Source: an uncultured Muribaculaceae bacterium
Lineage (GTDB): Bacteria; Bacillota_I; Bacilli_A; RF39; UBA660
Direction: 5' to 3'
Assembly (NCBI GenBank): GCA_964369155.1
Contig: CAYJEI010000001.1
Span: 607 to 64,606, forward strand
Length of the DNA stretch: 64,000 nt
The translations under genes and the position numbers were made by a program. Position 1 is the stretch's first letter. Each line of letters opens with the position of its first letter. Under the pieces are notes generated by a model. That model did not search any database. It was not told where the DNA came from and saw only the letters and a program-made list of their open reading frames with translations. This document shows, piece after piece, positions 2,366-60,399 of the stretch.

Positions 2366-3970
2366 ATGAAAGAAATATTAATAAAAAATAAAACAATAAT
2401 AATACTTTCACTTATACTTTTACTTCTAGGCGTTATAGGAGTGTCATATGCTTTTATGTCAAGTGATATTGTTGTAACAACAGAAGGCAACGCAAACACT
2501 CAGATTATTGCAGGAGATGGTTATACACTTGAGCATGTAAGAAACTCGGAAAAACTTACAGATGTAAGTGGAACTGATTACAGACTACTTGATATGTCAT
2601 CGGATATAACTCTTACAGCATTAGAACAAGTGGATACAACTTATGATTTATATTATAATGTTAAAGTTAATAATTATTTAGAAGGAACAACAACTTCTTC
2701 AGCTAAAGTAATCGTTAAAGTATTTAATCCAAGTGGAGCTGAAGTTACAACCATTACTGGACTTTCAAGAGTAACTGTAGGGTCAATTACTGGTTTTAAT
2801 TTAACAGATTATACTGGTAGTATAGAACTTGCTAAAGACTATGCTATATCAACAAACACTAGTACTACACAAAACTGGCAAGTAAAAGTATATTTATATG
2901 ATACAGCAGGTCTATCAAATATAAGTAATACATTATTTGATAGTGAACTTAATGTTGAGAAAAATATCGTGTTTGCAAAAGATTATATACTAGGACATAA
3001 TGGAGGTCAAACAGCAATAGAGGCAAAAGCGGAACCAGACTTTACACAAACTGCAACAACAGATGAAGGAATGTTTGCAGCGACAGATGAATACGGAACA
3101 AGTTACTATTATAGAGGTGCAGTAGATAATAACTGGATGCTATATAATGGAATATACTGGAGAATAGTAAGAATAGCCGGAAACGGGTCAATAAAACTAC
3201 TTTATAGTGGTACTACAGCGCCAGCGAGGGCAACAGCAACAGTAATGACTGGAAGTGGAACACAAGCTGGTACAAGTGCGTTTAATTCATCTTATAGTAA
3301 TAATGCATATGTTGGATATATGTATACACTTAATCAAAGACAAGGCCTTGGTACTAAGAGTACAATAGCAACTGTACTTGATAATTGGTATACAACAAAT
3401 ATGAATGGAGTAGACTTACAAATAGCAGATAATACATTTTGTTATGATAGAAGTTTAGCAACAGGAGGTTATCAAAGTAGTGATTTTGGATGGAATGGAA
3501 GTACATATACTGGAACAGGTATAGGAACTAGTGGTACATTATATGGTACTCATACAAGGTTAACAGCATCTAGTAGTACTTTGGAACTGGGAGGAACTGG
3601 ACCTGAACTCGCGTGTCCAAGTAGGGAGGATGCATATACAGTAGATGATACAACAAATGGAAATGGAGCACTTTCTAAAAAAGTAGGATTACTCACTGCC
3701 GATGAGGCAGTAATGGCTGGTCTAGGAGCTGGCTCTGCCAGCAGTACCAGTAGTAACTATTTGTATACAAATAGTAGCTACTGGTTAGGCTCTCCTTTTG
3801 GGTTCCGTTCTTATGATAATGCGGGTGTGTGGTATGTGTATTCTTCTGGTTCTTTGTACAACTTTAATGTCAATGATACTCGTGGTGTTCGTCCTGCAGT
3901 TTATCTCATGTCTAATATCGTGTTAAGCGGAACAGGTGAGTGGAACGACGTTTACAAAATAAAGTCTTAG
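2366..3970 (+). CDS. Secreted mosaic protein, paralog 1 (SipW-type signal peptide, TasA/camelysin-like N-domain, conserved C-terminal WLGSPFG/VRPAVYL module)
   Basis: N-terminal K-rich/hydrophobic signal ending GVSYAF; about 80% aa identity to 5076-6692; C-terminal blocks shared with 28363-30534 and 43933-46101; 3' end abuts IS remnant. Confidence 0.8.
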   Translation: MKEILIKNKTIIILSLILLLLGVIGVSYAFMSSDIVVTTEGNANTQIIAGDGYTLEHVRNSEKLTDVSGTDYRLLDMSSDITLTALEQVDTTYDLYYNVKVNNYLEGTTTSSAKVIVKVFNPSGAEVTTITGLSRVTVGSITGFNLTDYTGSIELAKDYAISTNTSTTQNWQVKVYLYDTAGLSNISNTLFDSELNVEKNIVFAKDYILGHNGGQTAIEAKAEPDFTQTATTDEGMFAATDEYGTSYYYRGAVDNNWMLYNGIYWRIVRIAGNGSIKLLYSGTTAPARATATVMTGSGTQAGTSAFNSSYSNNAYVGYMYTLNQRQGLGTKSTIATVLDNWYTTNMNGVDLQIADNTFCYDRSLATGGYQSSDFGWNGSTYTGTGIGTSGTLYGTHTRLTASSSTLELGGTGPELACPSREDAYTVDDTTNGNGALSKKVGLLTADEAVMAGLGAGSASSTSSNYLYTNSSYWLGSPFGFRSYDNAGVWYVYSSGSLYNFNVNDTRGVRPAVYLMSNIVLSGTGEWNDVYKIKS

Positions 3971-4856
3971 ATACGGACATTTTCTGATTTTTTCCTAAAA
4001 CACTGGGGAAAATGTTCCAAAATATTCGGCCGATAGATTAAAAATGTATAAAAAAATCACTTAAAATGTGATTTAAAACATACAAAAAAGGTTAAAATTT
4101 GAATTAAATTTTAAAAATTTTAAGTATATAAAATAAAATTTGTTTTAATGGTGACATTATTATTGCTGAGGTAAGCATTAAAAAGTGTTAAACCGAGATT
4201 GAAATTTGAGAGAATACGAATGTATTCTCCATTTTTTTTCTTTTTGGCAAATCTAACATTGAACTTTGTTTTTCTACGATGATAATTTTTGATGTAATCA
4301 GAACCAATAATTACAAGCCATATAGAAGCAATGCATAAAAGTGTATATAAAGTATCATATGCTTTAATATTTTTAGTTCTAGTTTTTTCAAGATTAAAAC
4401 CATTTGTTTTAGTGTTTTTGAAGAAAGATTCAATAAAACCAAATCTTTTGTTGTAATCTCTAACCGCAATATTTGGATCATTATTTGTGACAAGATACCA
4501 TGCTTCTTCATGTGTAACTGTTCTTGATATTACTAAGTTAGTTTTAATGGGATGATGCTTACCACAAGTTATATTTTTATAATATTTACTAACAAACACT
4601 TTAGGTGTGAAGTATTTTACTTTATACCATACTTCGTGTTTCTCGTTATAAGGTTTATATTTAAAATTAAGAGAACTATCTGCTTTTATTCTAAAACAAT
4701 AATAATGGTTAAGGGAATTAATACATTTAAGAATATTTAAATCAGAAAACCATCTATCTGCTAAAAAAGTTATTTTAATATCAGTATTGTTAACATAAGA
4801 AAAAGCTTCTTTAATTGCATTAAAAATAGTATTAGTCTTAAAAAGAGGTGATTGTT
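3967..4856 (-). mobile_element. Truncated, decayed copy of IS4-like insertion sequence (left inverted repeat present, 5' half of transposase gene deleted)
   Basis: Left end TTAGATACGGAC matches left inverted repeat (IRL) of the intact copy at 6738; internal sequence about 85% identical to 6738-6930; reverse-strand translation 4120-4856 aligns to C-terminal half of the 394-aa transposase with frameshifts/deletions. Confidence 0.75.
4120..4856 (-). pseudogene. Transposase pseudogene (C-terminal half, degraded upstream part)
   Basis: 159-aa ORF 4120-4599 aligns to residues about 235-394 of the transposase 6891-8075; upstream 4600-4856 still encodes HFTPKV-like remnant out of frame. Confidence 0.7.
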
Positions 4857-5075: not shown

Positions 5076-6692
5076 ATGAAAGAAATATTAATAAAAAATA
5101 AAACAATAATAATACTTTCACTTATACTTTTACTTCTAGGCGTTATAGGAGTGTCTTACGCTTTTATGTCAAGTGATGTTGTTGTAACAACAGAAGGTAA
5201 CGCAAATGTTCAGGTTATTGCTGGAGACGGTTATACATTTGAACATATAAGAAATATTGAGAAACTTACAGAAGTAAGTGGAACTGACTATACACTACTT
5301 GATATGTCTTCAGACATAACTCTTACAGCATTAGAACAAATTGATACAACATATGATTTATATTACAATATAAAGGTAAATAATTATTTAGAAGGAACTA
5401 CAACTTCCTCTGCTAAAGTAATTGTTAAAATCTATAATCCAAGTGGAGCTGAAGTAACATCTCTTACTGGACTTTCAAGGGTAACAGTAGGATCAATTAC
5501 TGGATTTAATTTAACAGATTACACTGGTAGTATAGAGCTTGTTAAAGATTACGCTATATCAACAAACTCTAGTATTACACAAAACTGGCAAGTAAAAGTA
5601 TATTTATATGATACAGTAGGTTTACCTAATATAAGTAATACTGTTTTTGATAGTGAAATGAATGTTGAGGAACATGATCCTTGTTGGAATCCTGAAACTT
5701 CTACAGATATAATATTATGTCATAATGGAGGACAAGCATTAATAGAAGCTAAAGCAGAACCAGATTTCACACAAGTAGCTGATACAAATGAAGGAATGTT
5801 TGCAACAACAGACACATATGGAACAGCATACTACTATAGAGGAGCAGTGGATAATAACTGGTTATACTATAATGGAATATACTGGAGAATAGTGAGTATA
5901 GCTGGAAACGGAGCTATTAAGCTACTTTATAGTGGTACTACAGCGCCAACAAGTGCAACGGCAACAGTAATGACTGGAGAACATACTGAAATAGGAGAAT
6001 ATGCATTTAATTCTACATATAATAATAATGCATATGTAGGGTATATGTATACTTTGAATCAAAGACAAGGACTAGGAACAAGTAGTCTTATAAAAACAAC
6101 ACTTGATAATTGGTACACAACAAATATGAATGGAGTTGACTCACAAATAGTAGATAATATATTTTGTTATGATAGAAGTTTAGCAAAATCTGGATATCAG
6201 AGTTCAAATTTTGGCTCAGCAAACGGAAGTTATACAGGAACTGGAACTGGAACTGTAGGTACATTATATGGAACAGCAGCAAGAATAACCGCATCAAGTA
6301 GTAGGATGGTAGCCGGTGGAACGGGACCAGACATAATGTGTCCTAGTAAAACAGATGCGTATACAGCAGGTGATACAACAAATGGTAATGGAGCTCTTTC
6401 TAAAAAAGTAGGGTTACTCACTGCCGATGAGGCAGTAATGGCAGGCCTTGCGCATGGCACAAGAAACAGTACCACCTATTTGTATACAAATAGGTGGTAC
6501 TGGTTGGGCTCTCCTTTTGGGTTCGGTTCTAATTCTACTGATTATGCTCGTGTGTGGGGTGTGGATCCTACTGGTAATTTCTACGACTTTTTTGTCAGTG
6601 CTACTTTTGGTGTGCGTCCTGCAGTTTATCTCACGTCTAATATCGTGTTAAGCGGAACAGGTGAGTGGAACGACGTTTACAAAATAAATTAG
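5076..6692 (+). CDS. Secreted mosaic protein, paralog 2
   Basis: Same architecture as paralog 1; signal peptide identical; 3' flank shared with paralog 3. Confidence 0.8.
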   Translation: MKEILIKNKTIIILSLILLLLGVIGVSYAFMSSDVVVTTEGNANVQVIAGDGYTFEHIRNIEKLTEVSGTDYTLLDMSSDITLTALEQIDTTYDLYYNIKVNNYLEGTTTSSAKVIVKIYNPSGAEVTSLTGLSRVTVGSITGFNLTDYTGSIELVKDYAISTNSSITQNWQVKVYLYDTVGLPNISNTVFDSEMNVEEHDPCWNPETSTDIILCHNGGQALIEAKAEPDFTQVADTNEGMFATTDTYGTAYYYRGAVDNNWLYYNGIYWRIVSIAGNGAIKLLYSGTTAPTSATATVMTGEHTEIGEYAFNSTYNNNAYVGYMYTLNQRQGLGTSSLIKTTLDNWYTTNMNGVDSQIVDNIFCYDRSLAKSGYQSSNFGSANGSYTGTGTGTVGTLYGTAARITASSSRMVAGGTGPDIMCPSKTDAYTAGDTTNGNGALSKKVGLLTADEAVMAGLAHGTRNSTTYLYTNRWYWLGSPFGFGSNSTDYARVWGVDPTGNFYDFFVSATFGVRPAVYLTSNIVLSGTGEWNDVYKIN

Positions 6693-6737
6693 GATTTTAG
6701 CAACACGAAAACCTCATTTCTGATAGGTCAAACGCGC

Positions 6738-8224
6738 TTAGATACGGACAATTTTCTAATTTTGTCCTAAAACACTGGTGAAAATGAGATAAAAAATACG
6801 ACCAGTAAATTAAAAAACGTTAAAAAATCACACAAAATGTGATTCAAAGCATACAAAAAAGGTCGAAAAGTGAATTGAATTTTAAAAATTTTAGATATAT
6901 AAAATAAAATTTGTTTTAATGGTGACATTATTGTTGCTGAGGTAAGCATTAAAAAGTGTTAAACAGAGATTGAAATTTGAGAGAATACGAGTGTATTCTC
7001 CATTTTTCTCTTTTTTGGCAAATCTAACATTGAATTTTGCTTTTCTATGATTATAATTTTTAATATAATTAGCACCTATTACAACTAACCAAATAGTAGC
7101 AATGCATAGAAGTGTATATAAAGTATCATAAGTTTCTATATTTTTAGTTCTGGTTTTTTCAAGATTAAATCCATTTGTTTTGATATTTTTAAAGAAAGAT
7201 TCTATTGCACCAAATCTTTTATTATAATCTCTAACTGCATCTCTTGGAGTATCATTTGTAAATAAATAATAACCTTCATCTTGACCTAAAGTTCTTGATA
7301 CAACTAGATTAGTTTTAAAAGGATTGCTTTTACTTGCAATTATATTTTCATAGTATTTGCTTGCATGAACTTTAGGAGTAAAATGTTTGATTTTATACCA
7401 AGTTTCATTATTTTCGAAATTAAATTGATATTTAAGGTTTAAGTCACTATTGGATTTCATTTTGAAGTTATAGTAGTGACCAAGTGATTCAATGTGTCTT
7501 AAAATATCAAGGTCACCGAACCATCTATCAGCTTGAAACTTAAGTTTTACATCCATTCCAGCAAAATATGAAACGACCTGATCAATAGCTACTAAAATTG
7601 TTTGTGTTATAAATATTGGTCTTTTTTTATCAAAGTCTTCTTTGGTTTTGCAAAAGTCTTTAGTTTTAGAGTTAATGAAAAATATTGGAATTCCTTGTTC
7701 ATTTACCCTAAGAGTAAAGACAAGTGCAACAAAATTATTTTTTTCCCAGGAGTGGTCTATGGTAATAAATGCTTTTTTATGTTTAAAAACAACAGAAGAT
7801 ATAATTTTTCTTATAAAAGTTTTAAATAAAAAATCACTATCTAAAGATGTATTGTTAAAAAAGCGATAAATTCTTTTTTGAACAGAATCTAAGTTAATTG
7901 AATTTACTTTATTTTTAGCAATATCTACAGTAACGATTGATTCTGCTTTAATTAAAGAAGGTACAATAGAGGATATATTTTTAAGATTAGGAATAGAAAT
8001 AGGAATATCAAGATGAGAAAAGAAATTGTAAATATCTCTTATTAAATCATTAATATTGTTATATAATTTTTTCATAAACAGCCACCTTTATATTATTTTT
8101 TTGTCAATTTAATTATAAAACAAAATGGCTGTTTATTTTATGTCTAAAATACGTTTAAGAAACGTTTAACAAATATAGTGTAAAACACTAGAAAGATCTA
8201 GTTTAAAAAAATGTCCGGATATAA
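6738..8224 (-). mobile_element. Intact IS4-like insertion sequence (about 1.49 kb) with imperfect 20-bp terminal inverted repeats
   Basis: IRL TTAGATACGGACAATTTTCT (6738) vs reverse complement of right end TTATATCCGGACATTTTTTT (8224), 16/20 match; single transposase ORF inside. Confidence 0.7.
6891..8075 (-). CDS. DDE transposase (IS4-family-like; ITIDHS, QADRWFG, YNKRFGAIESFFKNIK motifs)
   Basis: 394-aa ORF with D, D, E and Y-x2-R-x3/4-E-x6-K signature. Confidence 0.7.
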   Translation of the reverse strand: MKKLYNNINDLIRDIYNFFSHLDIPISIPNLKNISSIVPSLIKAESIVTVDIAKNKVNSINLDSVQKRIYRFFNNTSLDSDFLFKTFIRKIISSVVFKHKKAFITIDHSWEKNNFVALVFTLRVNEQGIPIFFINSKTKDFCKTKEDFDKKRPIFITQTILVAIDQVVSYFAGMDVKLKFQADRWFGDLDILRHIESLGHYYNFKMKSNSDLNLKYQFNFENNETWYKIKHFTPKVHASKYYENIIASKSNPFKTNLVVSRTLGQDEGYYLFTNDTPRDAVRDYNKRFGAIESFFKNIKTNGFNLEKTRTKNIETYDTLYTLLCIATIWLVVIGANYIKNYNHRKAKFNVRFAKKEKNGEYTRILSNFNLCLTLFNAYLSNNNVTIKTNFILYI

Positions 8225-8480
8225 GGGTATGTTGTTGAAGTGATGAGGAAACAAACAAAATCCATGGCCTATGTGTCTAAAAATGGGATAAGAGAAGAAA
8301 TAGAGTGTTAGTAGTTACAGTGCGAAAAGTAAGTTGTTTTTTTTCTCCCCTCTAGGAGATATTATGCAAAAATTTAGGCTACTTGAAAAAACAAGAAAAC
8401 AATTTTTTACGTTAATAAATATGTTGTTCCGAATATACCTAAAATTTATTCTGTTTATAGAAATGAGTTAATAAAATCGA
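8225..8480. repeat. About 250-bp noncoding repeat, copy A (about 88% identical to 31010-31265)
   Basis: Direct alignment; substitutions and non-triplet indels evenly spread, no conserved reading frame. Confidence 0.8.
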
Positions 8481-8847
8481 TGTTTATACTGCATAGAAGT
8501 ATTATAAGTGCAAATATTAACGAGGGAAATAGTAAAACTAGATTTCAAAAAGAGGCTTTAACTGAAATCTGTAATATAGATTTTATTATTTAATATTAAA
8601 TGAAATCAAAGTTATTGAAAGCAAAAGATATAACGCTATGATGAATGCTTTTTTAGAAATTAAAAAGATGCTAGAAACTTGGAGTAGTAATGAAAAGAAA
8701 AAATTATCTATTTAGTCATAATTTAAGAAGAGAAAGTATTTTTAACTGTTATTTAGATGTGAAAAGAAATTGTAAAAGTGATTTTAAACTTGCCAGTTTA
8801 GCGAAAATTTAAACTTAAATATTTTAAAAATATGTTTAAATTTACAT

Positions 8848-8878
8848 TATGATACTTATCAAATGGATAAGTATCATA
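8848..8878. promoter_or_regulatory. Perfect 13-bp inverted repeat (TATGATACTTATC-aaatg-GATAAGTATCATA) followed by T-rich tract
   Basis: Read directly; terminator-like or operator-like. Confidence 0.4.
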
Positions 8879-9040
8879 TATTTTTAATCAGAGAAAATAA
8901 AGTTATTATTAATTTATAATTAGTTTTATAAATATATTAGATACAAAAACATAACTAAATTTATTTTATTTAGTTAGTATATCTTAAGGTTATATTGTAA
9001 TATTTTAGCTTGTTTTGTCGAAGTGCTTGAAAGGAAAATT

Positions 9041-9952
9041 ATGATAGAAGAAAAAGAAATAAATCTTACTATGGATATTGTATTTAAAATGTTTTTTAAA
9101 ACTGAAGTTAAATATTTAGCGCTTGTTCTTAGTAATGTTTTAGATGAAGATATTAAAGAAAGTAATATAACTTTTCTAGATAAAGAAGAGGAAGGTGATA
9201 GTGCGCTTGATAAAGTTTGTGTACTTGATTTAAAAGTTAAACTTGATAGTGGTGAAATAATATTTATTGATATGCAAAGTTATAAAGAAAAATATTTATA
9301 TGAAAGAATGGAGTTTTATTTATCAAAGCTTACAGTTAAACAGTTAAAAAAATCTGAAAGTTATAGTAAACTTAAGAAAGTTTGTGGTATATTTTTTCTT
9401 AATTATCAAGATGAAAATTTTGATGAATTATTTACAGAAATAAAAGAATATGATACTATTAATGAAAGAGAAGTTAAAAGACTTAGAGAGAAATATATTA
9501 TTAATTTAACACATTTAGATAGAAATGAAATATTTAATAAAGATATGATGAATTTACTTAAGTTTATGACTTTAAAAAAAGAAAAGGATAGGAAAGATAT
9601 GGCAATTACTGATGAAAAATTAAAAGAAGCTTATGAAGCAATGGCTAAAATTAATTCTGATCCACTAGTTGAAGAATATATTTGGGCAAAAGAAAATGAA
9701 GAAAGAAGAAGGTTGCAAAGTATAAGTGATGCTAAGGAATTTGCAATGGAAGAAGGTTATGCAAATGGACGTATAGCTGGCCATGCTGAGGGTCATGCTG
9801 AAGGCCATGCTGAAGGTCATGCTCGAGGAATTGCTCAAGAGAAGTCTAACGTTGTTAAAGAAATGTATAAAAATAGGCTTGATATAGATTTGATAAGTAA
9901 TGTAACAAAATTATCGGAAAATGAAATTAAAAAGATATTAGATATAGAATAA
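9041..9952 (+). CDS. Rpn-family (YhgA-like, PD-(D/E)XK) recombination-promoting nuclease / putative transposase
   Basis: Typical Rpn layout with C-terminal (GHAE)x4 repeat and LSENEIKKIL tail; RBS AAAGGAAAA before ATG 9041. Confidence 0.65.
   Translation: MIEEKEINLTMDIVFKMFFKTEVKYLALVLSNVLDEDIKESNITFLDKEEEGDSALDKVCVLDLKVKLDSGEIIFIDMQSYKEKYLYERMEFYLSKLTVKQLKKSESYSKLKKVCGIFFLNYQDENFDELFTEIKEYDTINEREVKRLREKYIINLTHLDRNEIFNKDMMNLLKFMTLKKEKDRKDMAITDEKLKEAYEAMAKINSDPLVEEYIWAKENEERRRLQSISDAKEFAMEEGYANGRIAGHAEGHAEGHAEGHARGIAQEKSNVVKEMYKNRLDIDLISNVTKLSENEIKKILDIE
9779..9826 (+). repeat. Four tandem 12-nt repeats (GGYCATGCTGAR) encoding GHAEGHAEGHAEGHA
   Basis: Read directly inside the Rpn-family gene. 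Confidence 0.9.
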
Positions 9953-28362: not shown

Positions 28363-30534
28363 ATGGAGCAAATAAAAAAAGTTAAAAAAAGAGTAATAGT
28401 TATGATAGTAAGTGTACTTGTACTGACTATAAGCGTAGGATACGCATTTATAGCAGGAGGAGTAGGACCAGCTGCTAATACAGATGTGGATATAGCAAGT
28501 GGGTCTACAACTAAACTTACATTTACAGAAGGAACACCTATAGGTTTAGAGTTAAATCAAACAACGCTTGCTGAAGGTGGTAGTGATGTAAGAGGAACTA
28601 CTACATCAAGTGCAACACTTACACTTGGTACTAATGTGACAAGCGCAACAGAGTATTATCAAGTTTATTTAAATATAGAAGCAAATAATTTTATTTATAC
28701 AACATCAGCAAAAACACCAGAGATATTACTTTCAGTAACTGATCCTGAAGGAAATGCTAAAAGTATAGAAGGTCTTCCAGAAGTATCTGCTGGAGTATAT
28801 GACATAACAGATTATAAAGGTCTTATAAAAATAGTAGAAGATTACGAAATTACAGGAAGCACTACAACAGTGCATGACTGGGAAGCAACAATAACATTTG
28901 TAAATTTAGACTCAAATCAAGCAGCTAATAGTGAAAAATCATTAGATGCAACTCTTATATTACAACAACCGAAAATGATGATACCAGATATAGGAATAGT
29001 AACTCCGGAAGGATGCACAGACTGTGGTCCAGGTGAAACAGTAGTAACTCCATCTACAGGAGATGTAGGGGAAAATGGTTCTACATATGATATATATACA
29101 GTAGGCTATGTAACTAATACATCAGCAACTGGAGTAACATACTCTATAGATATAAAAATACCAGGAATGGATTACTCTAAGCAAACTTTAGAACTAGTAA
29201 ATACAGCAGAAGTAATGGAACTTTTATTTGATTATGAAGAGTATATAGATTTTAAAGGTTCAGGAGTAATATCTAGTGGAAATACTGATGCAAGTGCAGT
29301 AGCAACAGCAAACGATCTTCATACATCATCAATGAAAGAAAGTAACTTAACTATAAATAGTGTAAAAGTAACATGTGGATCAGATAAATGTACAGCAGTA
29401 ATAACTGAAACATTTAGTAACTTATCAGGGTTAACAGCACACTCTACAACAACAAATAGTGGAGCAGCAATTAATGCAATATATAATGGAATAATGTTTA
29501 ATGTAATGTTAAGTGAAAAAACTGACCCATGTATAAATCCAACATCATCAAAAGATTTAATACTATGTCACAATGGAGGGCAAGCAGTAATAGAGGCAAA
29601 AGCAGAGCCTGATTTTACACAAGTAGCTGATACAAATGAAGGAATGTTTGCAGCAGAAGATGAATATGGAACAAGTTACTATTATAGAGGTGCTGTAGAC
29701 AATAACTGGGTGTTATTTAATGGAATATACTGGAGAATAGTAAGTATAGCAGGAGATGGCTCATTAAAACTACTTTATAGTGGCACTACAGCGCCGACAA
29801 GTTCAACAGCAACTGTTATGACTGGAAGTGGAACAGAGATAGGTACTAGCGCGTTTAATACAAGTATTAATGATAATGCGTATGTAGGATACATGTATAC
29901 TTTAAATCAAAGACAAGGATTAGGAACATCAAGTACAATAAAAGGAACTTTAGAAACCTGGTATACAACTAATATGAATGGAGTTGACTCACAAATAGCA
30001 GATAATATATTTTGTTATGATAGGAGTTTAGCTACAGCTGGATTTCAAAATTATAATTATGGCTCAACAAATGGAATTTATACAGGAACTGGAATAGGAA
30101 CAAGTGGTACATTATACGGAGTGACTGCAAGAATAACAGCATCAAGTAGTTCTTTTGGCCCAGGGGGAACAGGACCAGACTTAATGTGTCCTAGCAAAGA
30201 AGATGCGTATACAGTAGATGATACAACAAACGGAAATGGAGCTCTTTCTAAAAAAGTAGGGTTACTCACTGCCGATGAGGCAGTAATGGCAGGCCTTGCG
30301 TCTGGCATAAACATCTTTAGTAACTATTTGTACACAAATAGTAGGTACTGGTTGGGATCTCCTTTTGGGTTCTATTCTAGTTCTCATGCTCGTGTGTGGT
30401 ATGTGTATTCTTCTGGTCGTTTGAGCAACGATTATGTCAATTATGTTTGTGGTGTCCGCCCTACAGTTTATCTTTCATCTAATATCGTGTTAAGCGGAAC
30501 AGGTGAGTGGAACGACGTTTACAAAATAAATTAG
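28363..30534 (+). CDS. Secreted mosaic protein, paralog 3 (long form, extra about 190-aa insert)
   Basis: Signal ending ISVGYAF; N-domain type B shared with paralog 4; C-terminal module and 3' flank shared with paralog 2. Confidence 0.8.
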   Translation: MEQIKKVKKRVIVMIVSVLVLTISVGYAFIAGGVGPAANTDVDIASGSTTKLTFTEGTPIGLELNQTTLAEGGSDVRGTTTSSATLTLGTNVTSATEYYQVYLNIEANNFIYTTSAKTPEILLSVTDPEGNAKSIEGLPEVSAGVYDITDYKGLIKIVEDYEITGSTTTVHDWEATITFVNLDSNQAANSEKSLDATLILQQPKMMIPDIGIVTPEGCTDCGPGETVVTPSTGDVGENGSTYDIYTVGYVTNTSATGVTYSIDIKIPGMDYSKQTLELVNTAEVMELLFDYEEYIDFKGSGVISSGNTDASAVATANDLHTSSMKESNLTINSVKVTCGSDKCTAVITETFSNLSGLTAHSTTTNSGAAINAIYNGIMFNVMLSEKTDPCINPTSSKDLILCHNGGQAVIEAKAEPDFTQVADTNEGMFAAEDEYGTSYYYRGAVDNNWVLFNGIYWRIVSIAGDGSLKLLYSGTTAPTSSTATVMTGSGTEIGTSAFNTSINDNAYVGYMYTLNQRQGLGTSSTIKGTLETWYTTNMNGVDSQIADNIFCYDRSLATAGFQNYNYGSTNGIYTGTGIGTSGTLYGVTARITASSSSFGPGGTGPDLMCPSKEDAYTVDDTTNGNGALSKKVGLLTADEAVMAGLASGINIFSNYLYTNSRYWLGSPFGFYSSSHARVWYVYSSGRLSNDYVNYVCGVRPTVYLSSNIVLSGTGEWNDVYKIN

Positions 30535-30558: not shown

Positions 30559-30584
30559 TTTCTGATAGGTCAAACGAGGGAGTC
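30559..30584 (+). terminator. Terminator-like hairpin GGTCAAACGA-gggag-TCGTTTGACC downstream of paralog 3
   Basis: 10-bp stem; 5' arm also present after paralog 2 where the IS follows. Confidence 0.5.
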
Positions 30585-30766
30585 GTTTGACCGTAATTTA
30601 GTTGTGGGGAATATCAAAAAATAGAGAAAGTCTGATTTATATCCGCCGAAAGGCGGAAAATATTTGACACAAAATATACATATTGGATATTTTGTGTCTT
30701 TTTGTAATTACGCATTATTTGCTTATCGTAAATTTGGTATAATATAATTGTATACAAGTTATACTG

Positions 30767-30912
30767 GGTTTTGTTACTTAGGGATCTCCTTTGGGTTCAA
30801 TTTTAATAATATTAATATATGGAAAGTGAATTCTTTTGGTAATTTGAAGAACAATAATGTCACTAATACTAATGGAATGCGTCTTGCAGAGCTTCCTTTC
30901 ATAATTTTAAAA
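30767..30912 (+). pseudogene. Frameshifted AT-rich fragment homologous to the C-terminal about 45 codons of the secreted-protein family
   Basis: Translates (with one frameshift) to LYW / YLGISFGFNFNNINIWKVNSFGNLKNNNVTNTNGMRLAELPFIILK*, which aligns to YWLGSPFGF...VWYVYSSGRL..GVRPTVYLSSNIVL; preceded by TTGCTT...TGgTATAAT promoter-like sequence. Confidence 0.55.
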
Positions 30913-31009
30913 TAAATCCATAAAATGATGTAAACTTTATAATAAACGAAGAATAAATTGTGATCATAGTAGTTTAAGATGTATAAATATATCTATAGTT
31001 ATGATATAT

Positions 31010-31265
31010 AATAAAGTGATGAGAAAACAAACAAAATTCATGGTCTATGTGCCTAGAATTAGGATAAGAGAAGAAATAGTGTATTAGTAGTACAGTGTGA
31101 AAAGTAAGTTGTTTTTATTCTCCACTACAGGAGATATTATGCAAAAATTTAGGTTACTCGAAAAAACTAGGAAAACAATTTCTAGTTAATAAATATGTTG
31201 CTTTGAATATATCTAAAATTTATTCAGTATATAGAAACGAATTAATTAAATCGATGTTTATTTTG
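31010..31265. repeat. About 250-bp noncoding repeat, copy B
   Basis: About 88% identical to 8225-8480. Confidence 0.8.
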
Positions 31266-31399: not shown

Positions 31400-31570
31400 A
31401 TTCTAGTGCGGAGGATATAGAAAGTAATTAGCGCAGGGATTAAGGTATCTTAATTGACGAGGTGTATAGTTATCGATTTATCAGCGGATGCTATACCGGC
31501 CAAAAGTGGTCGTTAAATATATGACAAAAAATAAAATTTAAGATTATAACAAAGCATATATTAAGAAAGG
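31400..31570 (+). ncRNA. glmS ribozyme: glmS ribozyme (GlcN6P-responsive self-cleaving riboswitch)
   Basis: A|GCGCAGGG cleavage-site core (A31430/G31431), P1 AUUAAG..CUUAAU, GACGAGG, P2 GUGUAUAG-UUAUCGAUUUAUCAGCGGAUGC-UAUAC matching the B. subtilis glmS leader; immediately 5' of glmS. Confidence 0.85.
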
Positions 31571-31583
31571 AAATAATTTTTAT

Positions 31584-36513: not shown

Positions 36514-36519
36514 ATAGTC

Positions 36520-36712
36520 AGCAAGCAAAGAAGTTTGAGGAGTAAAATATTATTTATTTTTAGAGAGTTAGTGTGAGGTGAAAACTAACAATAAATATAT
36601 TTGAAGGTTGCAAACGGAGTTTGAACGGTTAGAACCGATATATTCTAGATAAGTTAAAATTAAGGTGGTACCGCGTATAATACGCCCTTTGGTATTACCT
36701 TTTTATTTTGGG
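36520..36712 (+). promoter_or_regulatory. T-box riboswitch leader of valS
   Basis: AGAGA box, conserved T-box AATTAAGGTGGTACCGCG (36657-36675), overlapping terminator GGTGGTACC...GGTATTACC + T-run. Confidence 0.8.
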
Positions 36713-43932: not shown

Positions 43933-46101
43933 ATGATAAAGAAAAATAAAGGGAAAATATTAATGGTTTTAGGAGTATTACTTGTTCTAACTTTTGGTAT
44001 AACATATGCATTTTTTGCAGGAGGAAGAGGTCCATCAGCAAGTAGTGATATAGAAACAGGAACAGGAATTACTACTAAATTATTATTTACAGAAGGTACA
44101 CCTATAAACTTAGAATTAAATGAAGATACTCTTTTAGTAGGTGGAAGTGATGTAAGTGGAACTACTACATCAAGCGCAACACTTACACTTGGAACAAATG
44201 TAACAAGTGCAACAGAGTATTATCAAGTTTATTTAAATGTAGAATCAAATAATTTTATTTATACAACAGCAACAAAAACACCAGAGATACTACTTTCAGT
44301 AACAGATCCTGAAGGAAATGCTAAAAGTATAGAAGGTCTTCCAGAAGTATCTGCTGGAGTATATGACATAACAGATTATAAAGGTCTTATAAAAATAGTA
44401 GAAGATTACGAAATCACAGGAAGCACTACAACCGTGCATGACTGGGAAGCAACAATAACATTTGTAAATTTAGATTCAAATCAATCTGCAAATGAAGGAA
44501 AAAATCTTGATGCAACTCTTATATTACAACAACCAAAAATGATGATACCAGATATAGGAATAGTAACTCCAGAAGGATGCACAGACTGTGGTCCAGGTGA
44601 AACAGTAGTAACTCCATCTACAGGAGATGTAGGGGAAAATGGTTCTACATATGATATATATACAGTAGGCTATGTAACTAATACATCAGCAACTGGAGTA
44701 ACATACTCTATAGATATAAAAATACCAGGAATGGATTACTCTAAGCAAACTTTAGAACTAGTAAATACAGCAGAAGTAATGGAACTTTTATTTGATTATG
44801 AAGAGTATATAGATTTTAAAGGTTCAGGAGTAATATCTAGTGGAAATACTGATGCAAGTGCAGTAGCAACAGCAAACGATCTTCATACATCATCAATGAA
44901 AGAAAGTAACTTAACTATAAATAGTGTAAAAGTAACATGTGGATCAGATAAATGTACAGCAGTAATAACTGAAACATTTAGTAACTTATCAGGGTTAACA
45001 GCACACTCTACAACAACAAATAGTGGAACCGCAATAAACGCCATATATAATGGAATAATGTTTAATGTAATGATAAGTGAAAAAACTGACCCATGTATAA
45101 ATCCAACAACATCAAAAGATTTAATTTTATGCCACAATGGGGGGCAAGAAGCAATAGAGGCAAAAGCCGAGCCTAATTTTACACGTGTTGCAGATACAAA
45201 CGAAGGAATGTTTGCAACAACAGATACATATGGAACAGCGTACTACTTCAGAGGAGCAGTAGATAATAATTGGTTATATTATAATGGAATATACTGGAGA
45301 ATAGTAAATATAGCAGGAGATGAATCGCTTAAACTACTTTATAGTGGTACTACGGCGCCGACAAGTTCAACAGCAACTGTTATGACTGGAAGTGGAACAC
45401 AGATAGGAGATAACACATTTAATACAACAACAACAGATAATGCATATGTAGGGTACATGTATACTTTAAATCAAAGGCAAGGACTAGGAACATCAAGTAC
45501 AATAAAAGGAACTTTAGAAAACTGGTATACAACATATATGAATGGAGTTGACTCACAAATAGTAGATAATATATTTTGTTATGATAGGAGTTTAGCTACA
45601 GCTGGATATCAAAGTTCTCATTTTGGTTCAGCAAATGGAAGTTATACAGGAACAGGACTAGGAACAAGTGCTACATTATATGGAACAGCAGCAAGAATAA
45701 CCGCATCAAGTAGTAGTAAGGCAGCAGGTGGAACAGGACCAGACTTAATGTGTCCTAGCAAAGAAGATGCATATACAGTAGATGATACAACAAATGGTAA
45801 TGGAGCTCTTTCTAAAAAAGTAGGGTTACTCACTGCCGATGAGGCAGTAATGGCAGGCCTTGCGTTTGAGGAAAACGCCAGTAGTAACTATTTGAACACA
45901 GATAGTTACTACTGGTTGGGCTCTCCTTTTGGGTACGCTTCTCCTTTTATTAGTGCTTATATGTGGTATGTGTATTCTTCTGGTATTCTGAACAACAATT
46001 ATGTCAATAATACTCTTGGTGTCCGCCCTGTAGTTTATCTTTCATCTAATAATAAAATAACTGGAACAGGAACTTGGGATGATTATTATGTAGTACAATA
46101 A
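43933..46101 (+). CDS. Secreted mosaic protein, paralog 4 (long form)
   Basis: Signal ending FGITYAF; 456-bp tract 44572-45027 identical to paralog 3; AT-rich variant C-terminal end (..GTGTWDDYYVVQ). Confidence 0.8.
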   Translation: MIKKNKGKILMVLGVLLVLTFGITYAFFAGGRGPSASSDIETGTGITTKLLFTEGTPINLELNEDTLLVGGSDVSGTTTSSATLTLGTNVTSATEYYQVYLNVESNNFIYTTATKTPEILLSVTDPEGNAKSIEGLPEVSAGVYDITDYKGLIKIVEDYEITGSTTTVHDWEATITFVNLDSNQSANEGKNLDATLILQQPKMMIPDIGIVTPEGCTDCGPGETVVTPSTGDVGENGSTYDIYTVGYVTNTSATGVTYSIDIKIPGMDYSKQTLELVNTAEVMELLFDYEEYIDFKGSGVISSGNTDASAVATANDLHTSSMKESNLTINSVKVTCGSDKCTAVITETFSNLSGLTAHSTTTNSGTAINAIYNGIMFNVMISEKTDPCINPTTSKDLILCHNGGQEAIEAKAEPNFTRVADTNEGMFATTDTYGTAYYFRGAVDNNWLYYNGIYWRIVNIAGDESLKLLYSGTTAPTSSTATVMTGSGTQIGDNTFNTTTTDNAYVGYMYTLNQRQGLGTSSTIKGTLENWYTTYMNGVDSQIVDNIFCYDRSLATAGYQSSHFGSANGSYTGTGLGTSATLYGTAARITASSSSKAAGGTGPDLMCPSKEDAYTVDDTTNGNGALSKKVGLLTADEAVMAGLAFEENASSNYLNTDSYYWLGSPFGYASPFISAYMWYVYSSGILNNNYVNNTLGVRPVVYLSSNNKITGTGTWDDYYVVQ

Positions 46102-46852: not shown

Positions 46853-48166
46853 ATGGCAAAAGAAAAAATTAAAATGGGTAAAAAAGAAAAGATATTTAAT
46901 GTTATAAGTTTTTTAATTATAGGAGTACTTGCTATTTACTATGGTGGACGTGCAGTATACTGGTTTATATATGAACTTAGTGAAGCTCAAAATAGAGATA
47001 ATACTGCTGCACATTATGTAATAAATGATAATGAAATAGTAGATGAAGGTGACGGATTATACAGAGCTAAAGATACTTATTATTTTGCTGGAAATCCTGA
47101 AAATAATTACGTGACATTAGGTGGTGCGACGTATCGCATACTTAGCATAAATGAAAACAACGAAATGAAATTAGTTCTTAATGATGTTGCAGCAAGTTTT
47201 ATGTGGGGAGAAGAAAATAGTTATTCATCTTCAAATGTAGATGTTTGGCTAGGAGATAGTGGTGTATACTATGATACATTAATAGAAGCAGAAAAATATT
47301 TATCAAAAACTAAATTTACTGAAGATGTTTTAAGTGATGGAAGTTTAGAAGTTGGAGACAAATTATTTGAAGAGTATGTTACAACACTTACGGTATCTGA
47401 TTATGAAACTGCAGGTGGAAGCGATAGCTTTTTAAATAATGAAAAATATTTCTGGTTAATTGGGAAATCAAATGAAAATAATTTATATGTAAACTCCAGT
47501 GGAGTAATAAGTGAATACACAACTAGCGAATCATATGGCGTTAAACCAGTTATAACTTTAAAAGGTGATGTTATAAGATTAAGAGGAGAAGGAACTTTAA
47601 GTAATCCTATATATATTGATACAAAAGATGATATGACATATATAAATTCTTATGTAACGTTAGGTACTGATACATACAAAGTTTTTGAAGAAAATGAAGA
47701 TATACTTAAACTTGTTAAAACAGATAGTATAGCTGGTGTTCTAAAACCATATGGAACACTTAATACTAATTTTGATTTAAGTGATGCAACTAGTTTAGCG
47801 TATTATTTAAATAATGATTACTTAAATAGTTTAAGTTATGCAACTAGTTTATCAGATTGTACGTTTAATACTGGTGTGATAAGTGAAGAAAAAGGATTTA
47901 ACTATTCAAATATTTTAGAAGAAACTATAGTGGCTAAAGTTGGAATTATGAATATTTTTGATTATAATAATAACGATATAGAAAATTATTTTTACTTAAC
48001 AAATACAGGTCTAGGAAGTGATACAGCTTATGTGAAAAGTGAAAATGGATTATTAAAAAAAGATTTAATAACTTCTGAAAAAGAAATAGTTCCAGTTATT
48101 TGTTTAAATAAAGATAAAATAATAGATGGTGTAGGAGCTAGTTATAGCCCATATACAGTAGAATAG
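46853..48166 (+). CDS. Membrane-anchored protein with two tandem copies of the family C-terminal module (YYFAGNPENNYV...YRIL; YFWLIGKS...GVKPVITL; YFYLTN...IVPVICL)
   Basis: N-terminal TM anchor; motif-level similarity to the paralog C-terminal domain. Confidence 0.65.
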   Translation: MAKEKIKMGKKEKIFNVISFLIIGVLAIYYGGRAVYWFIYELSEAQNRDNTAAHYVINDNEIVDEGDGLYRAKDTYYFAGNPENNYVTLGGATYRILSINENNEMKLVLNDVAASFMWGEENSYSSSNVDVWLGDSGVYYDTLIEAEKYLSKTKFTEDVLSDGSLEVGDKLFEEYVTTLTVSDYETAGGSDSFLNNEKYFWLIGKSNENNLYVNSSGVISEYTTSESYGVKPVITLKGDVIRLRGEGTLSNPIYIDTKDDMTYINSYVTLGTDTYKVFEENEDILKLVKTDSIAGVLKPYGTLNTNFDLSDATSLAYYLNNDYLNSLSYATSLSDCTFNTGVISEEKGFNYSNILEETIVAKVGIMNIFDYNNNDIENYFYLTNTGLGSDTAYVKSENGLLKKDLITSEKEIVPVICLNKDKIIDGVGASYSPYTVE

Positions 48167-48174
48167 GAGTATTT

Positions 48175-49203
48175 ATGAAAAGAAAATTAAGATGGCATAC
48201 TAAATTATTTATTGTTCTAGATATCATAGCTGTTACTGGTCTTATCACAATAAATGTTCCAGCATTTCAAGAGTTTTGGATACCAACAGCAATGACTACA
48301 AAAAGTCATAAATATTTTGCGAGAACTTTTTATAGTCAAGATAAAATAGAAGAAGTGTTAGGTCAAAATTATATTAAATCTTCTACAGAAGATATTAATT
48401 TAGATGATATCGTAATTGGTGACAGTACCGATAAAACTGAATTTGAATCTATTTATGAAGAAGAAATATATACTAAAGAAGAAAATAACGAAGTATACAA
48501 AATAATAAAACTAGAAGAAGATAATTTTGTTGGTTTTTTAACTGTTGTTTATGACCCAGCTGATGTAGAACTTGCTATACCACAAAACTTAGGTAAAAAA
48601 GGTGAAAGAGTTATCGATTTAGTTTCAAATAATGACGGTCTTGTTGGTATAAATGGTGGAGGCTTTGAGGATTTAGATGGATATGGTGATGGATCAACTC
48701 CATATGGAAGTATAATTTATGAAGGAGAACTTATATATTCTTATCCGGGTGGTTCTGGAGAACTTATAGGATTTACTGAAGACCATAAACTTTATTTAAC
48801 AGATGAATCTCCAGAAGAGGCTATTGCAAATGGAATGTATGAAGCAGTAGAGTTTGGACCAAATTTAATAGTAAACGGTAAGGTTACTGAAATAGAAGGT
48901 AATGGTGGATGGGGAGTTGCCCCAAGAACAGTTATTGCTCAAAGAAAAGATGGAATAGTACTATTTTTAATAATTGATGGTAGACAACCAGGATATAGTG
49001 ATGGAGCTACAATGAATGAAGTAATTGAAGTACTAACTAGATATGGAGCATATAATGCAGCTAATCTTGATGGTGGAGGTTCAACAACTATGGCAGTAGG
49101 AAATGAACTTTATAATAAACCATCAGCAGGCGTATCTCAAGGTGGAAGATATGTTTCAAATGGTTTTATAGTAACTAATGATTTTGGGAAAACTGTGGAA
49201 TAG
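48175..49203 (+). CDS. Phosphodiester glycosidase family protein (NAGPA-like), membrane-anchored
   Basis: INGGGF...ANLDGGGSTTM motifs. Confidence 0.7.
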   Translation: MKRKLRWHTKLFIVLDIIAVTGLITINVPAFQEFWIPTAMTTKSHKYFARTFYSQDKIEEVLGQNYIKSSTEDINLDDIVIGDSTDKTEFESIYEEEIYTKEENNEVYKIIKLEEDNFVGFLTVVYDPADVELAIPQNLGKKGERVIDLVSNNDGLVGINGGGFEDLDGYGDGSTPYGSIIYEGELIYSYPGGSGELIGFTEDHKLYLTDESPEEAIANGMYEAVEFGPNLIVNGKVTEIEGNGGWGVAPRTVIAQRKDGIVLFLIIDGRQPGYSDGATMNEVIEVLTRYGAYNAANLDGGGSTTMAVGNELYNKPSAGVSQGGRYVSNGFIVTNDFGKTVE

Positions 49204-56279: not shown

Positions 56280-56356
56280 GTTCTTGTAACTCAGCTGGAT
56301 AGAGTAAATGCCTCCGACGCATTAAGTCTAGGGTTCGAGTCCCTACAAGAACGCCA
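56280..56356 (+). tRNA. tRNA-Arg (anticodon CCG)
   Basis: Manual fold: acceptor GTTCTTG/CAAGAAC, D-stem ACTC/GAGT, anticodon stem AATGC/GCATT with loop CTCCGAC, T-stem TAGGG/CCCTA with loop TTCGAGT, 3' CCA. Confidence 0.85.
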
Positions 56357-59190: not shown

Positions 59191-60399
59191 GTGAAAAAAG
59201 TAAATATTATGGGAAATTTAATTATTAGTAGAATAATGACTTTGTTAATTATTTCTTTTTTTGTTTTAATAATTATAAATCATAATAGTGATTATCTAAT
59301 AAATGATTTACTTAGAAATTTTTTGTTATTATTTATTATTATTTTAACAATATTTTTGAAAGTATTTAACAACAGAATAAAAAACAATGTTAAAATAACA
59401 AGAAAAAGTATTATATATAGAATATTACTATCAATATATATAATTGGTTGTATAACTTTTATTAGTTTATTATACTCACCATATAATGGTTTTAGAGATT
59501 GGTTTGTAACAACAGCAATGCAAACTAAATCACATCAATATTACGCTAAATGGTTTTATAGCGACAAACAAATTGAAGAAGTAATGTCTAACAACTATAT
59601 TATTGAACCAGAAGGCAACACTGATAAAAATTTAATTGACATTCATAAAGAAGTGACATATAAAAACGATTATGAAAAAGCTATTTTAGAAAAAGATTAT
59701 GATAATCAAGAATATAAAATAATCGAGTTTGAAGTAAATGGAGCATCAGCATATATCGCTGCTATATATGATCCATGTATGGTGCATGTAGGTGTGACAA
59801 AGTATTTAAATACAAGAGGGCAATACGTAACAGATATGGCCAAAGATAAAGATTCTATGCTAGCTATAAATGGCGGAGGATTTTATGATCCTAATCATAA
59901 TAGTGCAGGAGGAACACCAAGGGGAGTAACATTTTCAAATGGAAGTATAGTTACTGGTCAAAATGAATTAACAGATGATGTTATAGGATTTACTGATGAT
60001 AATGTACTCATGTTACTACACGATGTAACTGCCAGTGAAGCGCAAAGTTATGGAATAAGAGATGCTGTATCAATGGGACCTTTTTTAATAATTAATGGAA
60101 AATCAGCATTTATCAGTGGAAATGGTGGCTGGGGTAGAGCAGCAAGAACAGCAATAGGCCAAAGAGAAGATGGAATTGTATTATTTTTAGTAGTCGATTC
60201 CAATGAACTTAGAACTGGTGGAGCTGATATGTCAGATTTAACTCAAATTATGGAAAATTATGGAGCAGTAAATGCTGCTAATCTTGATGGTGGAACATCA
60301 AGTGTAATAGTTGAAAATTATGAAATTATAAATGATCCAATAGACAGTGATTTAAAACATCAAACTAGGCCTATAGCAACAATGTTTTATTTAAAATAA
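59191..60399 (+). CDS. Phosphodiester glycosidase family protein (second paralog), membrane-anchored
   Basis: INGGGFYD...ANLDGGTSS; similar to 48175-49203. Confidence 0.7.
   Translation: MKKVNIMGNLIISRIMTLLIISFFVLIIINHNSDYLINDLLRNFLLLFIIILTIFLKVFNNRIKNNVKITRKSIIYRILLSIYIIGCITFISLLYSPYNGFRDWFVTTAMQTKSHQYYAKWFYSDKQIEEVMSNNYIIEPEGNTDKNLIDIHKEVTYKNDYEKAILEKDYDNQEYKIIEFEVNGASAYIAAIYDPCMVHVGVTKYLNTRGQYVTDMAKDKDSMLAINGGGFYDPNHNSAGGTPRGVTFSNGSIVTGQNELTDDVIGFTDDNVLMLLHDVTASEAQSYGIRDAVSMGPFLIINGKSAFISGNGGWGRAARTAIGQREDGIVLFLVVDSNELRTGGADMSDLTQIMENYGAVNAANLDGGTSSVIVENYEIINDPIDSDLKHQTRPIATMFYLK

Follow-up and report, generated by a model that had tools for sequence, protein, structure and literature searches.

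Why should four paralogous genes of an AT-rich bacterial genome all end in DNA that is GC-rich and codon-atypical? The question is raised by a 64,000-nucleotide stretch from an uncultured Muribaculaceae bacterium (assembly GCA_964369155.1, contig CAYJEI010000001.1), here called the window and numbered from its first letter, in which the paralogs p1 to p4 (Table 1) carry such a 3′ module. We consider it very probable that these modules are the variable regions (VRs), that is, the target sites, of a diversity-generating retroelement (DGR), borne by a family of membrane-anchored, DUF6273-type lectin-like proteins, with a decayed cassette adjoining p2 and p3.

In a DGR, a template repeat (TR) is transcribed, a reverse transcriptase (RT) acting with the accessory variability determinant (Avd) makes cDNA with random bases opposite the template adenines, and this cDNA replaces the VR up to the initiation of mutagenic homing (IMH) site.

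Composition and codon use of the 3′ modules

The window as a whole has a GC content of 27.3%, and a scan of its full length shows that the paralog 3′ ends account for most of the 100-bp windows with at least 45% GC. A first-pass annotation of this DNA had described a GC-rich 3′ end of up to 58% GC in all the paralogs; the enrichment is real in p1-p4, but it peaks at 46-50% per 100 bp, and a value near 60% is reached in the 36-mer quoted there and nowhere else. The string CTCACTGCCGATGAGGCAGTAATGGC, also quoted there, indeed occurs exactly four times, once in each paralog.

Codon use was scored in 50-codon windows against the 26 other open reading frames (ORFs) of the window (11,554 codons; GC at third codon positions, GC3, 0.121; adenine 40.6%), which gave 422 reference windows. 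In the final ~300 bp of p1-p4, GC3 is 0.34-0.40 (reference mean 0.12, standard deviation 0.05, maximum 0.32), an index modelled on the codon adaptation index (CAI) is 0.36-0.40 (reference mean 0.755, minimum 0.507), GC exceeds the amino-acid expectation by 0.08 to 0.09 (reference standard deviation 0.015, maximum 0.063), and the adenine fraction is 0.17-0.26 (reference mean 0.405, minimum 0.273). For the p3 module (30262-30534) the corresponding values are GC3 0.34-0.38, CAI-like index 0.36-0.40 and adenine 0.21-0.26. In adenine fraction, GC3 and CAI-like index the modules lie outside the range of the 422 reference windows, so that the claim of an atypical composition is upheld.

The atypical zone has a sharp 5′ onset at TTACTCACTGCC (position 3689 in p1, 6414 in p2, 30262 in p3 and 45826 in p4) and is about 270-310 bp long, rather than the ~400 bp first proposed. 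The 130-170 bp upstream of it (for example, 30082-30231) have 43% GC against an expected 0.41 and normal codon use, their GC content being due to a Gly/Thr/Ala/Pro-rich amino-acid composition. In a distant paralog of the same fold (46853-48166), the stretch equivalent to the VR has an ordinary composition (GC 0.30, GC3 0.15, adenine 0.39), and therefore the fold itself does not demand A-poor codons.

Enrichment in the modules is 24-fold for CTC, 15-fold for CGT, 13-fold for GTC, 9-fold for GGC, 8-fold for GTG and 7-fold for GCC. Of the four rare codons first named, CGT and GCC are thus borne out, as is the preference for CGY (9, versus a single AGA), but CCG is absent from all 362 module codons. 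The other synonymous choices run the same way (CCT 10 versus CCA 0; GAG 8 versus GAA 1; TTG 9 versus TTA 4): all of the shifts are away from adenine, while the T fraction in the variable cores is still 0.42-0.43. Adenine depletion is the more telling property of the modules than GC richness.

Long stop-free antisense frames had been thought to occur at the modules only, and antisense stretches of 70-84 codons do overlap them; together with a strong 38-nt palindrome inside the coding sequence they could point to an overlapping antisense gene or a structured RNA in the 3′ end. Comparable stretches of at least 70 codons, however, are found at 66 places across the window (outside the known minus-strand genes), stop codons on the antisense strand vanish automatically when the sense strand is poor in A, variation in the VR means that the antisense frames are not conserved, and an Rfam scan of the modules and of the TR-spacer region returned no match. 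We give this explanation next to no probability.

Pattern of variation in the core

The variable core of each module, made of NNT/NNC codons, was compared with the rest of the C-terminal domain in a codon-aware alignment. Over the 29 codons of the core, the variable sites at codon positions 1, 2 and 3 number 18, 13 and 4, versus 62, 59 and 127 over 240 codons upstream in the same domain (Fisher p=6e-6); between p3 and p4 alone the core differs at 11, 8 and 0 sites. The 78 columns that are invariant in five VRs comprise 39 T, 21 G, 15 C and 3 A (p=6e-14 versus the coding average). Among codons for identical amino acids, synonymous differences amount to 0-8% in the module versus 26-32% upstream (p2, p3 and locus L002), and this uniformity of silent sites includes L002, a locus from another genome. 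A predicted C-type-lectin-fold domain carries the VR at its C-terminal end, and positions 1 and 2 of what appear to be AAY-derived codons vary, as is seen in DGR targets.

Could ordinary gene conversion among the paralogs, with diversifying selection on ligand-binding loops and no retroelement, give the same picture? Mosaic identity between paralogs does exist (p3 and p4 are 100% identical over 120 codons), and the loops are variable across the whole protein family, which has more than 4000 matches. Selection does not, however, yield A-free scaffolds or NNT/NNC codons, a process confined to one genome fails to explain the identity with L002, and no account would be given of an AAT-rich copy that has a promoter of its own and precedes the remains of avd and RT (described below). 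We hold this alternative to be highly improbable.

The identical tract mentioned above lies in the N-terminal region: the DNA of p3 (28363-29500) and p4 (43933-45070) is 100% identical over ~360 nt (alignment columns 240-360) and divergent on either side, a mosaic suggestive of recent gene conversion across the 15 kb between the two copies.

A template-repeat-like copy downstream of p3

When the modules were compared with the window by sensitive BLAST, a fifth copy was found at about 30780-30915, 213 bp past the p3 stop codon and 70-73% identical to the VRs. A promoter-like sequence, TTGCTT-18-TATAAT, stands upstream of it; a consensus promoter/terminator scan flagged neither this promoter nor the terminator-like hairpin that follows hairpin 2, so both calls rest on our own reading of the letters.

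The copy reads AAT/AAC at the positions where the genes read NNT/NNC. The VRs vary at 29 of the 39 positions where it has A and at 13 of the 81 where it does not (odds ratio 15, p=1e-9), and of the 42 VR-variable columns 29 have an A in the copy (p=9e-7). The p1 VR alone differs from it at 21 of 35 A positions and at 7 of 65 positions with another base, and there is one gap of 3 nt. Its core has 27% GC and 35% A; for the VRs the figures are 38-45% and 13-20%. Behind TACTGG this copy has a segment of 10 nt that was at one time taken as a sign of decay; that idea was dropped, as the intact TR of a related contig (L018, below) has the same segment.

These observations can be understood if the modules were written from such a template. 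With every template adenine mutable, the codons of the protein scaffold would have to be A-free, that is, CGT/CGC rather than AGA, CCT rather than CCA, GAG rather than GAA, TTG/CTC rather than TTA, and TCT rather than AGT; the modules are rich in rare codons because in a 27% GC genome the A-free synonyms are the rare ones. Template codons AAT/AAC would become NNT/NNC in the genes, taking adenine from 35% to ~15% and GC from 27% to 38-45%, since replacement of adenines by random bases in a template of genome-typical composition gives just such a rise. Finally, a single template overwriting all the targets would keep the silent sites of the modules uniform and leave the loop codons to differ at positions 1 and 2.

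The first-pass annotation had offered either a foreign C-terminal module or a recombination substrate as the origin. The second idea comes close, but ordinary recombination is the wrong mechanism. As to the first, the modules could be an unameliorated segment from a GC-richer donor, the DGR having no role in their composition, and the sharp 5′ boundary at TTACTCACTGCC, the flank codons ATC, GTG, AGC, GAG, AAC, GAC and TAC (which go beyond adenine avoidance alone), a related locus (L013) reaching 51% GC and GC3 0.52, and the fact that each of the two module types, A and B, is accompanied by its cognate TR-like copy would all agree with this. A plain foreign origin nevertheless fails to explain the composition of the variable cores: the bias is specifically against adenine, with T as high as 0.42, the variation is limited to codon positions 1 and 2, and the TR-like copy has a genome-typical 27% GC with the VR differences lying mainly at its adenines. 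BLAST of the module alone found its closest homologues only among paralogs in related low-GC metagenome-assembled genomes (MAGs), and module DNA and domain protein had no match in phage and plasmid collections. A foreign segment is therefore quite improbable for the modules as a whole, though it may be partly true for their flanks.

Cassette remains

A 251-nt segment covering the end of the spacer and the start of avd downstream of p3 (31014-31261) recurs downstream of p2 at 8238-8487 with 87% identity. Homology between the two loci ends at 6734, inside hairpin 1, and resumes at 8238, with a 1.5 kb insertion sequence (IS) in between that replaces the equivalent of 30577-31013, the template repeat included. 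The IS ends were placed at the homology breaks; a repeat finder recovered no terminal inverted repeats for the element. The IS insertions at p1 and p2 occupy the same kind of site, immediately 3′ of the target module.

After repair of its two frameshifts, the avd pseudogene encodes 116 amino acids (aa). It matches Pfam bAvd-like (PF22296; E=6.6e-6, 27.0 bits, positions 10-104 of 107) and the NCBIfam DGR Avd model NF033474 (E=3.3e-5, 24.2 bits, positions 3-102 of 104). An exhaustive HMMER search of 1.84 billion representatives with its uninterrupted 68-aa frame returned twelve proteins, mostly of 113-118 aa (best E=1.5e-12, identity 48-50%), which match the repaired avd from N-terminus to C-terminus. 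In all six that were scanned the top NCBIfam match is DGR Avd (the sole match in five), with scores of 27-45 bits. The gene thus appears to belong to a divergent Avd lineage rather than to be a non-member, because intact homologues also score low and one of them adjoins and overlaps an RVT_1 gene.

That homologue (P0122) is found on the Logan contigs L018-L021, which have 24.7% GC. The cassette on L018, which belongs to a related bacterium, is intact and shows homology to the remains in the window over its full length. It has the order rnhB, a promoter with an AAT/AAC-rich TR, a ~170-nt spacer, avd, and an overlapping gene for a 435-aa RT (RVT_1 E=3.7e-10, with a YMDD motif), and it aligns with the window at 30715-31160 across the TR, the spacer and the start of avd. 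There is no target next to it, and it would therefore act on remote targets. A tblastn search of the window with the L018 RT gave two collinear segments in two frames, 8681-8782 (RT residues 10-43) and 8797-8901 (residues 49-83), with a joint E=2e-6, and no match besides. This stump corresponds to ~80 codons of the 435-aa DGR RT, has lost all the catalytic motifs, and overlaps the end of avd just as in L018.

Taken together, the window holds two dead copies of a target-TR-avd-RT unit. The p2 cassette has lost its TR to the IS and keeps a frameshifted avd and the RT stump, and the p3 cassette keeps the TR-like copy and 40 codons of avd; the window contains neither an intact DGR-type RT nor an intact accessory gene (avd or HRDC). 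Some 120 nt past the break of the RT stump, at 9023-9952, there begins a gene for a transposase of the PD-(D/E)XK nuclease family (Rpn-like, PDDEXK_2 E=1e-18), which may be linked with the RT deletion.

The target proteins

The products of p1-p4 share an N-terminal hydrophobic membrane anchor and a common C-terminal domain of ~335 aa; p3 has the anchor, an N-terminal region of ~380 aa and a 339-aa C-terminal domain. Pfam DUF6273 (PF19789) matches the last ~80 residues and only the C-terminal half of the model is covered, with scores that pass the gathering threshold of 23.5 bits in p1 (27.4), p3 (25.0, E=1.9e-5) and p4 (25.2) but not in p2 (16.6). An AlphaFold2 model of the 339-aa domain, built with 75 homologues, is of very high confidence, with a predicted local distance difference test (pLDDT) score of 96.7. 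In a Foldseek search with this model, the best solved structure was the N-terminal CTLD (C-type-lectin-like domain) of the Thomasclavelia ramosa IgA peptidase (PDB 9qa6; E 8e-6, 336 aligned columns, 14% identity), and in a viral library it matched DUF6273 proteins of gut phages (E 1e-7 to 1e-4). The C-terminal domain of p1-p4 is thus predicted to be an extended C-type-lectin-like domain of the DUF6273 type. The T. ramosa domain has a CTLD core with large decorations and about double the typical CTLD size (PMC12237041), and VRs of gut-phage DGRs map to the C-terminal end of DUF6273, itself C-type-lectin-like (PMC11792537, PMC10743442). Members of the family are probably ligand- or receptor-binding proteins.

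The distant paralog at 46853-48166 is a fifth lectin-like relative, lying directly after p4 and tdk (BLASTP E 7e-7 and 0.03 to p3). It has no Pfam match, and its VR-equivalent stretch is internal and of ordinary codon use.

Candidate cis elements

The IMH of known DGRs is 34 bp long with a GC-rich first 14 bp (PMC5758913). At the 3′ edge of the variable core, all four paralogs have a 34-nt element whose first 14 nt (GGTGTCCGCCCTAC) contain 10 of 14 GC, and the TR-like copy carries a divergent, IMH*-like version of it. Exactly where this element ends, at 46051, p4 ceases to resemble the other paralogs, and an AT-rich tail lies beyond. The final ~16 codons of p4 are indeed different and rich in AT, as first described, but to call them an ameliorated variant is probably to put the matter backwards: the tail, GTGTWDDYYVVQ, resembles the family consensus GxGTWNDPYxV, and because of this fit, together with the exact end of paralog similarity at 46051, it is more likely that p4 has kept its native end.

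Downstream, the stem of hairpin 1 is 10 bp long and its loop 5 nt; at p2 the hairpin is cut by the IS and its left arm survives (6726-6734). Its stem length and position are kept, with a changed sequence, in L008/L001 (GCGAAACCG/CGGTTTCGC) and in L013, making three module types. Surveyed phage DGR targets have hairpins with a 7-10 bp stem and a GRNA loop, 4-34 bp from the IMH, of which the length and position are kept and the sequence is not (PMC3240598). We infer that the present VRs were produced by retrohoming, and that the IMH-like element and the downstream hairpins would act as the IMH and as target-recognition structures.

At the 5′ edge of the VR there is a quasi-palindrome with, of 19 possible positions, 17 paired in p1, 18 in p2, 12 in p3, 16 in p4, and 17 each in L001 and L002. 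Its arms vary in a compensatory manner (ACCACC/GGTGGT in p2 versus AGTAAC/GTTACT in the other copies), and DNA folding of the p4 copy gave -14.1 kcal/mol (z=-5.2). It spans the conserved motif SSNYLYTNSYYW. A 16-nt core, TATTTGTATACAAATA, is also kept in a 47%-identical homologue (L010). On either side of the palindrome and core lie a 5′ flank, ~50 nt from 30262 onwards, and a 3′ flank that comprises 30485-30534 and the untranslated region (UTR) as far as hairpin 1; both use GC-ending codons, with silent sites identical among the paralogs and L002. These GC-ending codons are not explained by adenine avoidance, and a foreign or cassette-linked origin is possible for ~70 nt of 5′ flank and ~50 nt of 3′ flank.

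The flanks and the palindrome may be needed in cis, may have hitch-hiked with a cassette-linked module that recombination spread, or may result from quasi-palindrome correction. A stronger version, in which they form an undescribed cis element and the modules are rewritten in trans by a master (possibly mobile) TR-avd-RT common to related species, we consider unlikely; if it were true, the palindrome would set the 5′ boundary of retrohoming or couple the variation of its arms by hairpin-templated correction. The known DGR mechanism stays as it is unless the palindrome and flanks prove functional.

Related loci and wider searches

Nine related target loci (L001, L002 and L008-L014) were compared with the window. 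Four of them (L001, L002, L008 and L009), on contigs CAYJKL0100000xx with 27-30% GC, Firmicute-type genes and the same paralog family, belong to assembly GCA_964370755.1; its title, 'uncultured Muribaculaceae bacterium', looks wrong in label or binning. The closest homologues of the modules are all in low-GC relatives. Members of the family in related MAGs cover the full compositional range. Locus L013 (7930-8158 of its contig, GCA_964371745.1) has GC 0.51 and GC3 0.52 in its last 150 nt and its own 11-bp hairpin downstream. Locus L014 (1520-1828, GCA_964372145.1) is AT-rich with AAT-rich loops (FGFNNSINNIS) and no hairpin, and looks as a never-diversified or template-like state would.

The VR/TR pattern TGGTTNGGNTCTCCTTTTGGGT had no match in IMG/VR and five chance matches in JGI metagenomes, on contigs with 45-57% GC; viral scans with the spacer and avd-start patterns gave chance matches or none. 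Exact look-ups with p3 and with the proteins P0001 and P0005 gave no record.

Points against, and whether the system is still active

Several observations weigh against the DGR explanation and must be set beside those above. As a template, the TR-like copy is imperfect: per 100 nt, 7-10 mismatches to the VRs fall at non-A positions (mostly T in the copy versus C in the VR), and one codon is deleted relative to all of the VRs. These mismatches are consistent with decay, or with a copy that is not cognate, and curated DGRs too show an occasional indel or non-A difference between TR and VR (PMC5758913). The VR cores are of unequal length (103, 109, 103 and 106 nt). The hairpins stand ~83 and ~157 nt past the IMH-like element, beyond the published 4-34 bp, and the palindrome and both flanks have invariant adenines and are not visibly mutagenised, yet are codon-atypical and conserved. 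The repaired avd, although the top match in both libraries, scores below the curated cutoffs of 80 bits (NF033474) and 40 bits (PF22296), and a word-indexed search with it in a protein collection of 5.8 billion clusters found no close intact homologue. No frame of the 64-kb window has an RT motif of the YxDD type, no intact RT, avd or exact TR was found in the window or in the nine related target loci, and a scan of GTDB genomes with TGGTTNGGNTCTCCTTTTGGGT gave two further VRs in one related MAG and no TR.

As both cassettes in the window are dead, either a copy elsewhere is behind any recent diversification, or the system is extinct and the VRs are its fossils. The first of these, an active DGR whose master TR-avd-RT sits elsewhere in the genome or on a mobile element and rewrites p1-p4 in trans, is a tentative possibility that we rate as somewhat doubtful. 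It is a special case of the DGR explanation rather than a rival to it, and would make the two cassettes of the window mere dead duplicates. The VR scaffolds and silent sites (0-8% differences) are far more uniform than the relic cassettes (87% identical), non-A mismatch between the TR-like copy and the VRs is 10-15%, the identity reaches a second genome through L002, the intact L018 cassette stands alone with its targets remote, and remote targets are documented for DGRs (PMC5758913). Against this, the collection searched for avd does contain proteins of this very genome (P0001 and P0002), and the lack of a close homologue there argues against a working cognate cassette in it. The GTDB scan with its two VRs and no TR and the unequal VR lengths tell in the same direction, and the downstream hairpins are destroyed or displaced by IS at p1 and p2 and absent at p4, which speaks against a working copy.

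Comparison with known systems

The prototype DGR, that of Bordetella phage BPP-1 (mtd-avd-TR-brt), shares with the present loci a VR at the C-terminal end of a protein with the C-type-lectin fold, template codons of the form AAY, adenine-specific differences from a nearby repeat, a 34-nt IMH or IMH-like element with a GC-rich first 14 nt, downstream inverted repeats (one here with a GAAA loop), and an Avd gene overlapping the RT start. In contrast to BPP-1, the order here is target-TR-avd-RT, the system is part of a chromosome and has no fewer than four dispersed targets, its two cassettes have become pseudogenes, the hairpins are ~83 and ~157 nt instead of 4 bp past the element, and there are extended conserved flanks and an internal palindrome.

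Chromosomal DGRs of the Treponema denticola and Legionella type likewise have one template for several non-adjacent surface-protein targets with C-type-lectin-fold VRs, and the intact relative on L018 is similarly a stand-alone TR-avd-RT with no adjacent target. Unlike in these systems, the cassettes beside the targets here are relics with no master copy located, and the target is of the DUF6273 type, not the TvpA/FGE type.

The DUF6273 targets of gut-phage DGRs (Faecalibacterium prophages Lelie, Roos and Pioen; the nd4 and nd12 'tentaclins') have the same Pfam domain, a C-terminal VR and a C-type-lectin-like fold. The similarity to them is however marginal (Pfam E ~1e-5), with no BLAST match to phage records, and the proteins here are cellular, membrane-anchored and encoded among housekeeping genes, with a domain about twice the size of the Pfam model. 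The T. ramosa domain (9qa6) differs in being part of a metallopeptidase for which no DGR or VR is reported.

If the DGR explanation holds, a compositional anomaly becomes a mechanistic annotation, and a Firmicute surface-protein family of more than 4000 members would include DGR-diversified ones. Standard DGR finders begin from the RT; in an AT-rich genome, local depletion of adenine combined with rare A-free codons would be a sequence-only signature of DGR targets, usable even when the RT is remote or lost. Cassette decay is seen here at two stages next to each other, through IS insertion in one case and truncation in the other, and this bears on how DGRs are lost and how 'orphan' VRs arise.

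Feature coordinates and other genes of the window

Table 1. Paralogs, module parts and cassette remains (positions within the window)
Feature	Positions	Strand	Remarks
p1	2366-3970	+	module 3689-3970; truncated IS copy right after stop
p2	5076-6692	+	module 6414-6692; 3′ UTR to 6734
p3	28363-30534	+	module 30262-30534; from ORF, translation, Pfam, AlphaFold2, Foldseek
p3 module	30262-30534	+	5′ flank, palindrome, variable core, IMH-like element, 3′ flank
p4	43933-46101	+	module 45826-46051; AT-rich 3′ end; without downstream hairpins
38-nt (19+19) quasi-palindrome	30314-30351	+	encodes ..SNYLYTNSRYW; VR 5′ edge; equivalents 3747-3784, 6466-6503, 45878-45915
p3 VR core	30373-30450	+	NNT/NNC codons; equivalents 3806-3883 (p1), 6525-6608 (p2), 45937-46017 (p4)
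34-nt IMH-like element	30451-30484	+	GGTGTCCGCCCTAC + AGTTTATCTTTCATCTAATA; equivalents 3884-3917, 6609-6642, 46018-46051
Hairpin 1	30568-30592	+	GGTCAAACG-AGGGAG-TCGTTTGACC; in 3′ UTR; DNA folding z=-4.5
Hairpin 2	30642-30657	+	TCCGCC-GAAA-GGCGGA; 6-bp GC stem, GAAA loop
Terminator-like hairpin and T-run	30666-30703	+	after hairpin 2
TR-like element	30747-30925	+	AAT/AAC-rich second copy of last ~180 nt of target gene; from BLAST
TR-avd spacer	30926-31138	+	blocks conserved in intact cassette; copy at 8238-8363, 87% identical
Truncated 5′ avd fragment	31139-31261	+	MQKFRLLEKTRK...; 40 codons; 87% identical to 8364-8487
IS element	6735-8237	-	DDE_Tnp_1 transposase 6891-8075, Pfam E=3.6e-6; ends approximate
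avd pseudogene	8364-8715	+	accessory variability determinant; two frameshifts
RT pseudogene stump	8681-8901	+	from tblastn with L018 RT
Truncated IS copy	3966-4762		transposase fragment 4120-4599; 78% identical to p2 IS; right after p1 stop

Elsewhere in the window, Rfam matches at 31419-31572, 36519-36692 and 56280-56353 correspond to a glmS ribozyme and a T-box leader, lying upstream of glmS and valS respectively, and to a single tRNA gene. Two paralogous proteins with a NAGPA (phosphodiester glycosidase) domain and N-terminal anchors are encoded 10 kb apart, at 48175-49203 and 59191-60399.

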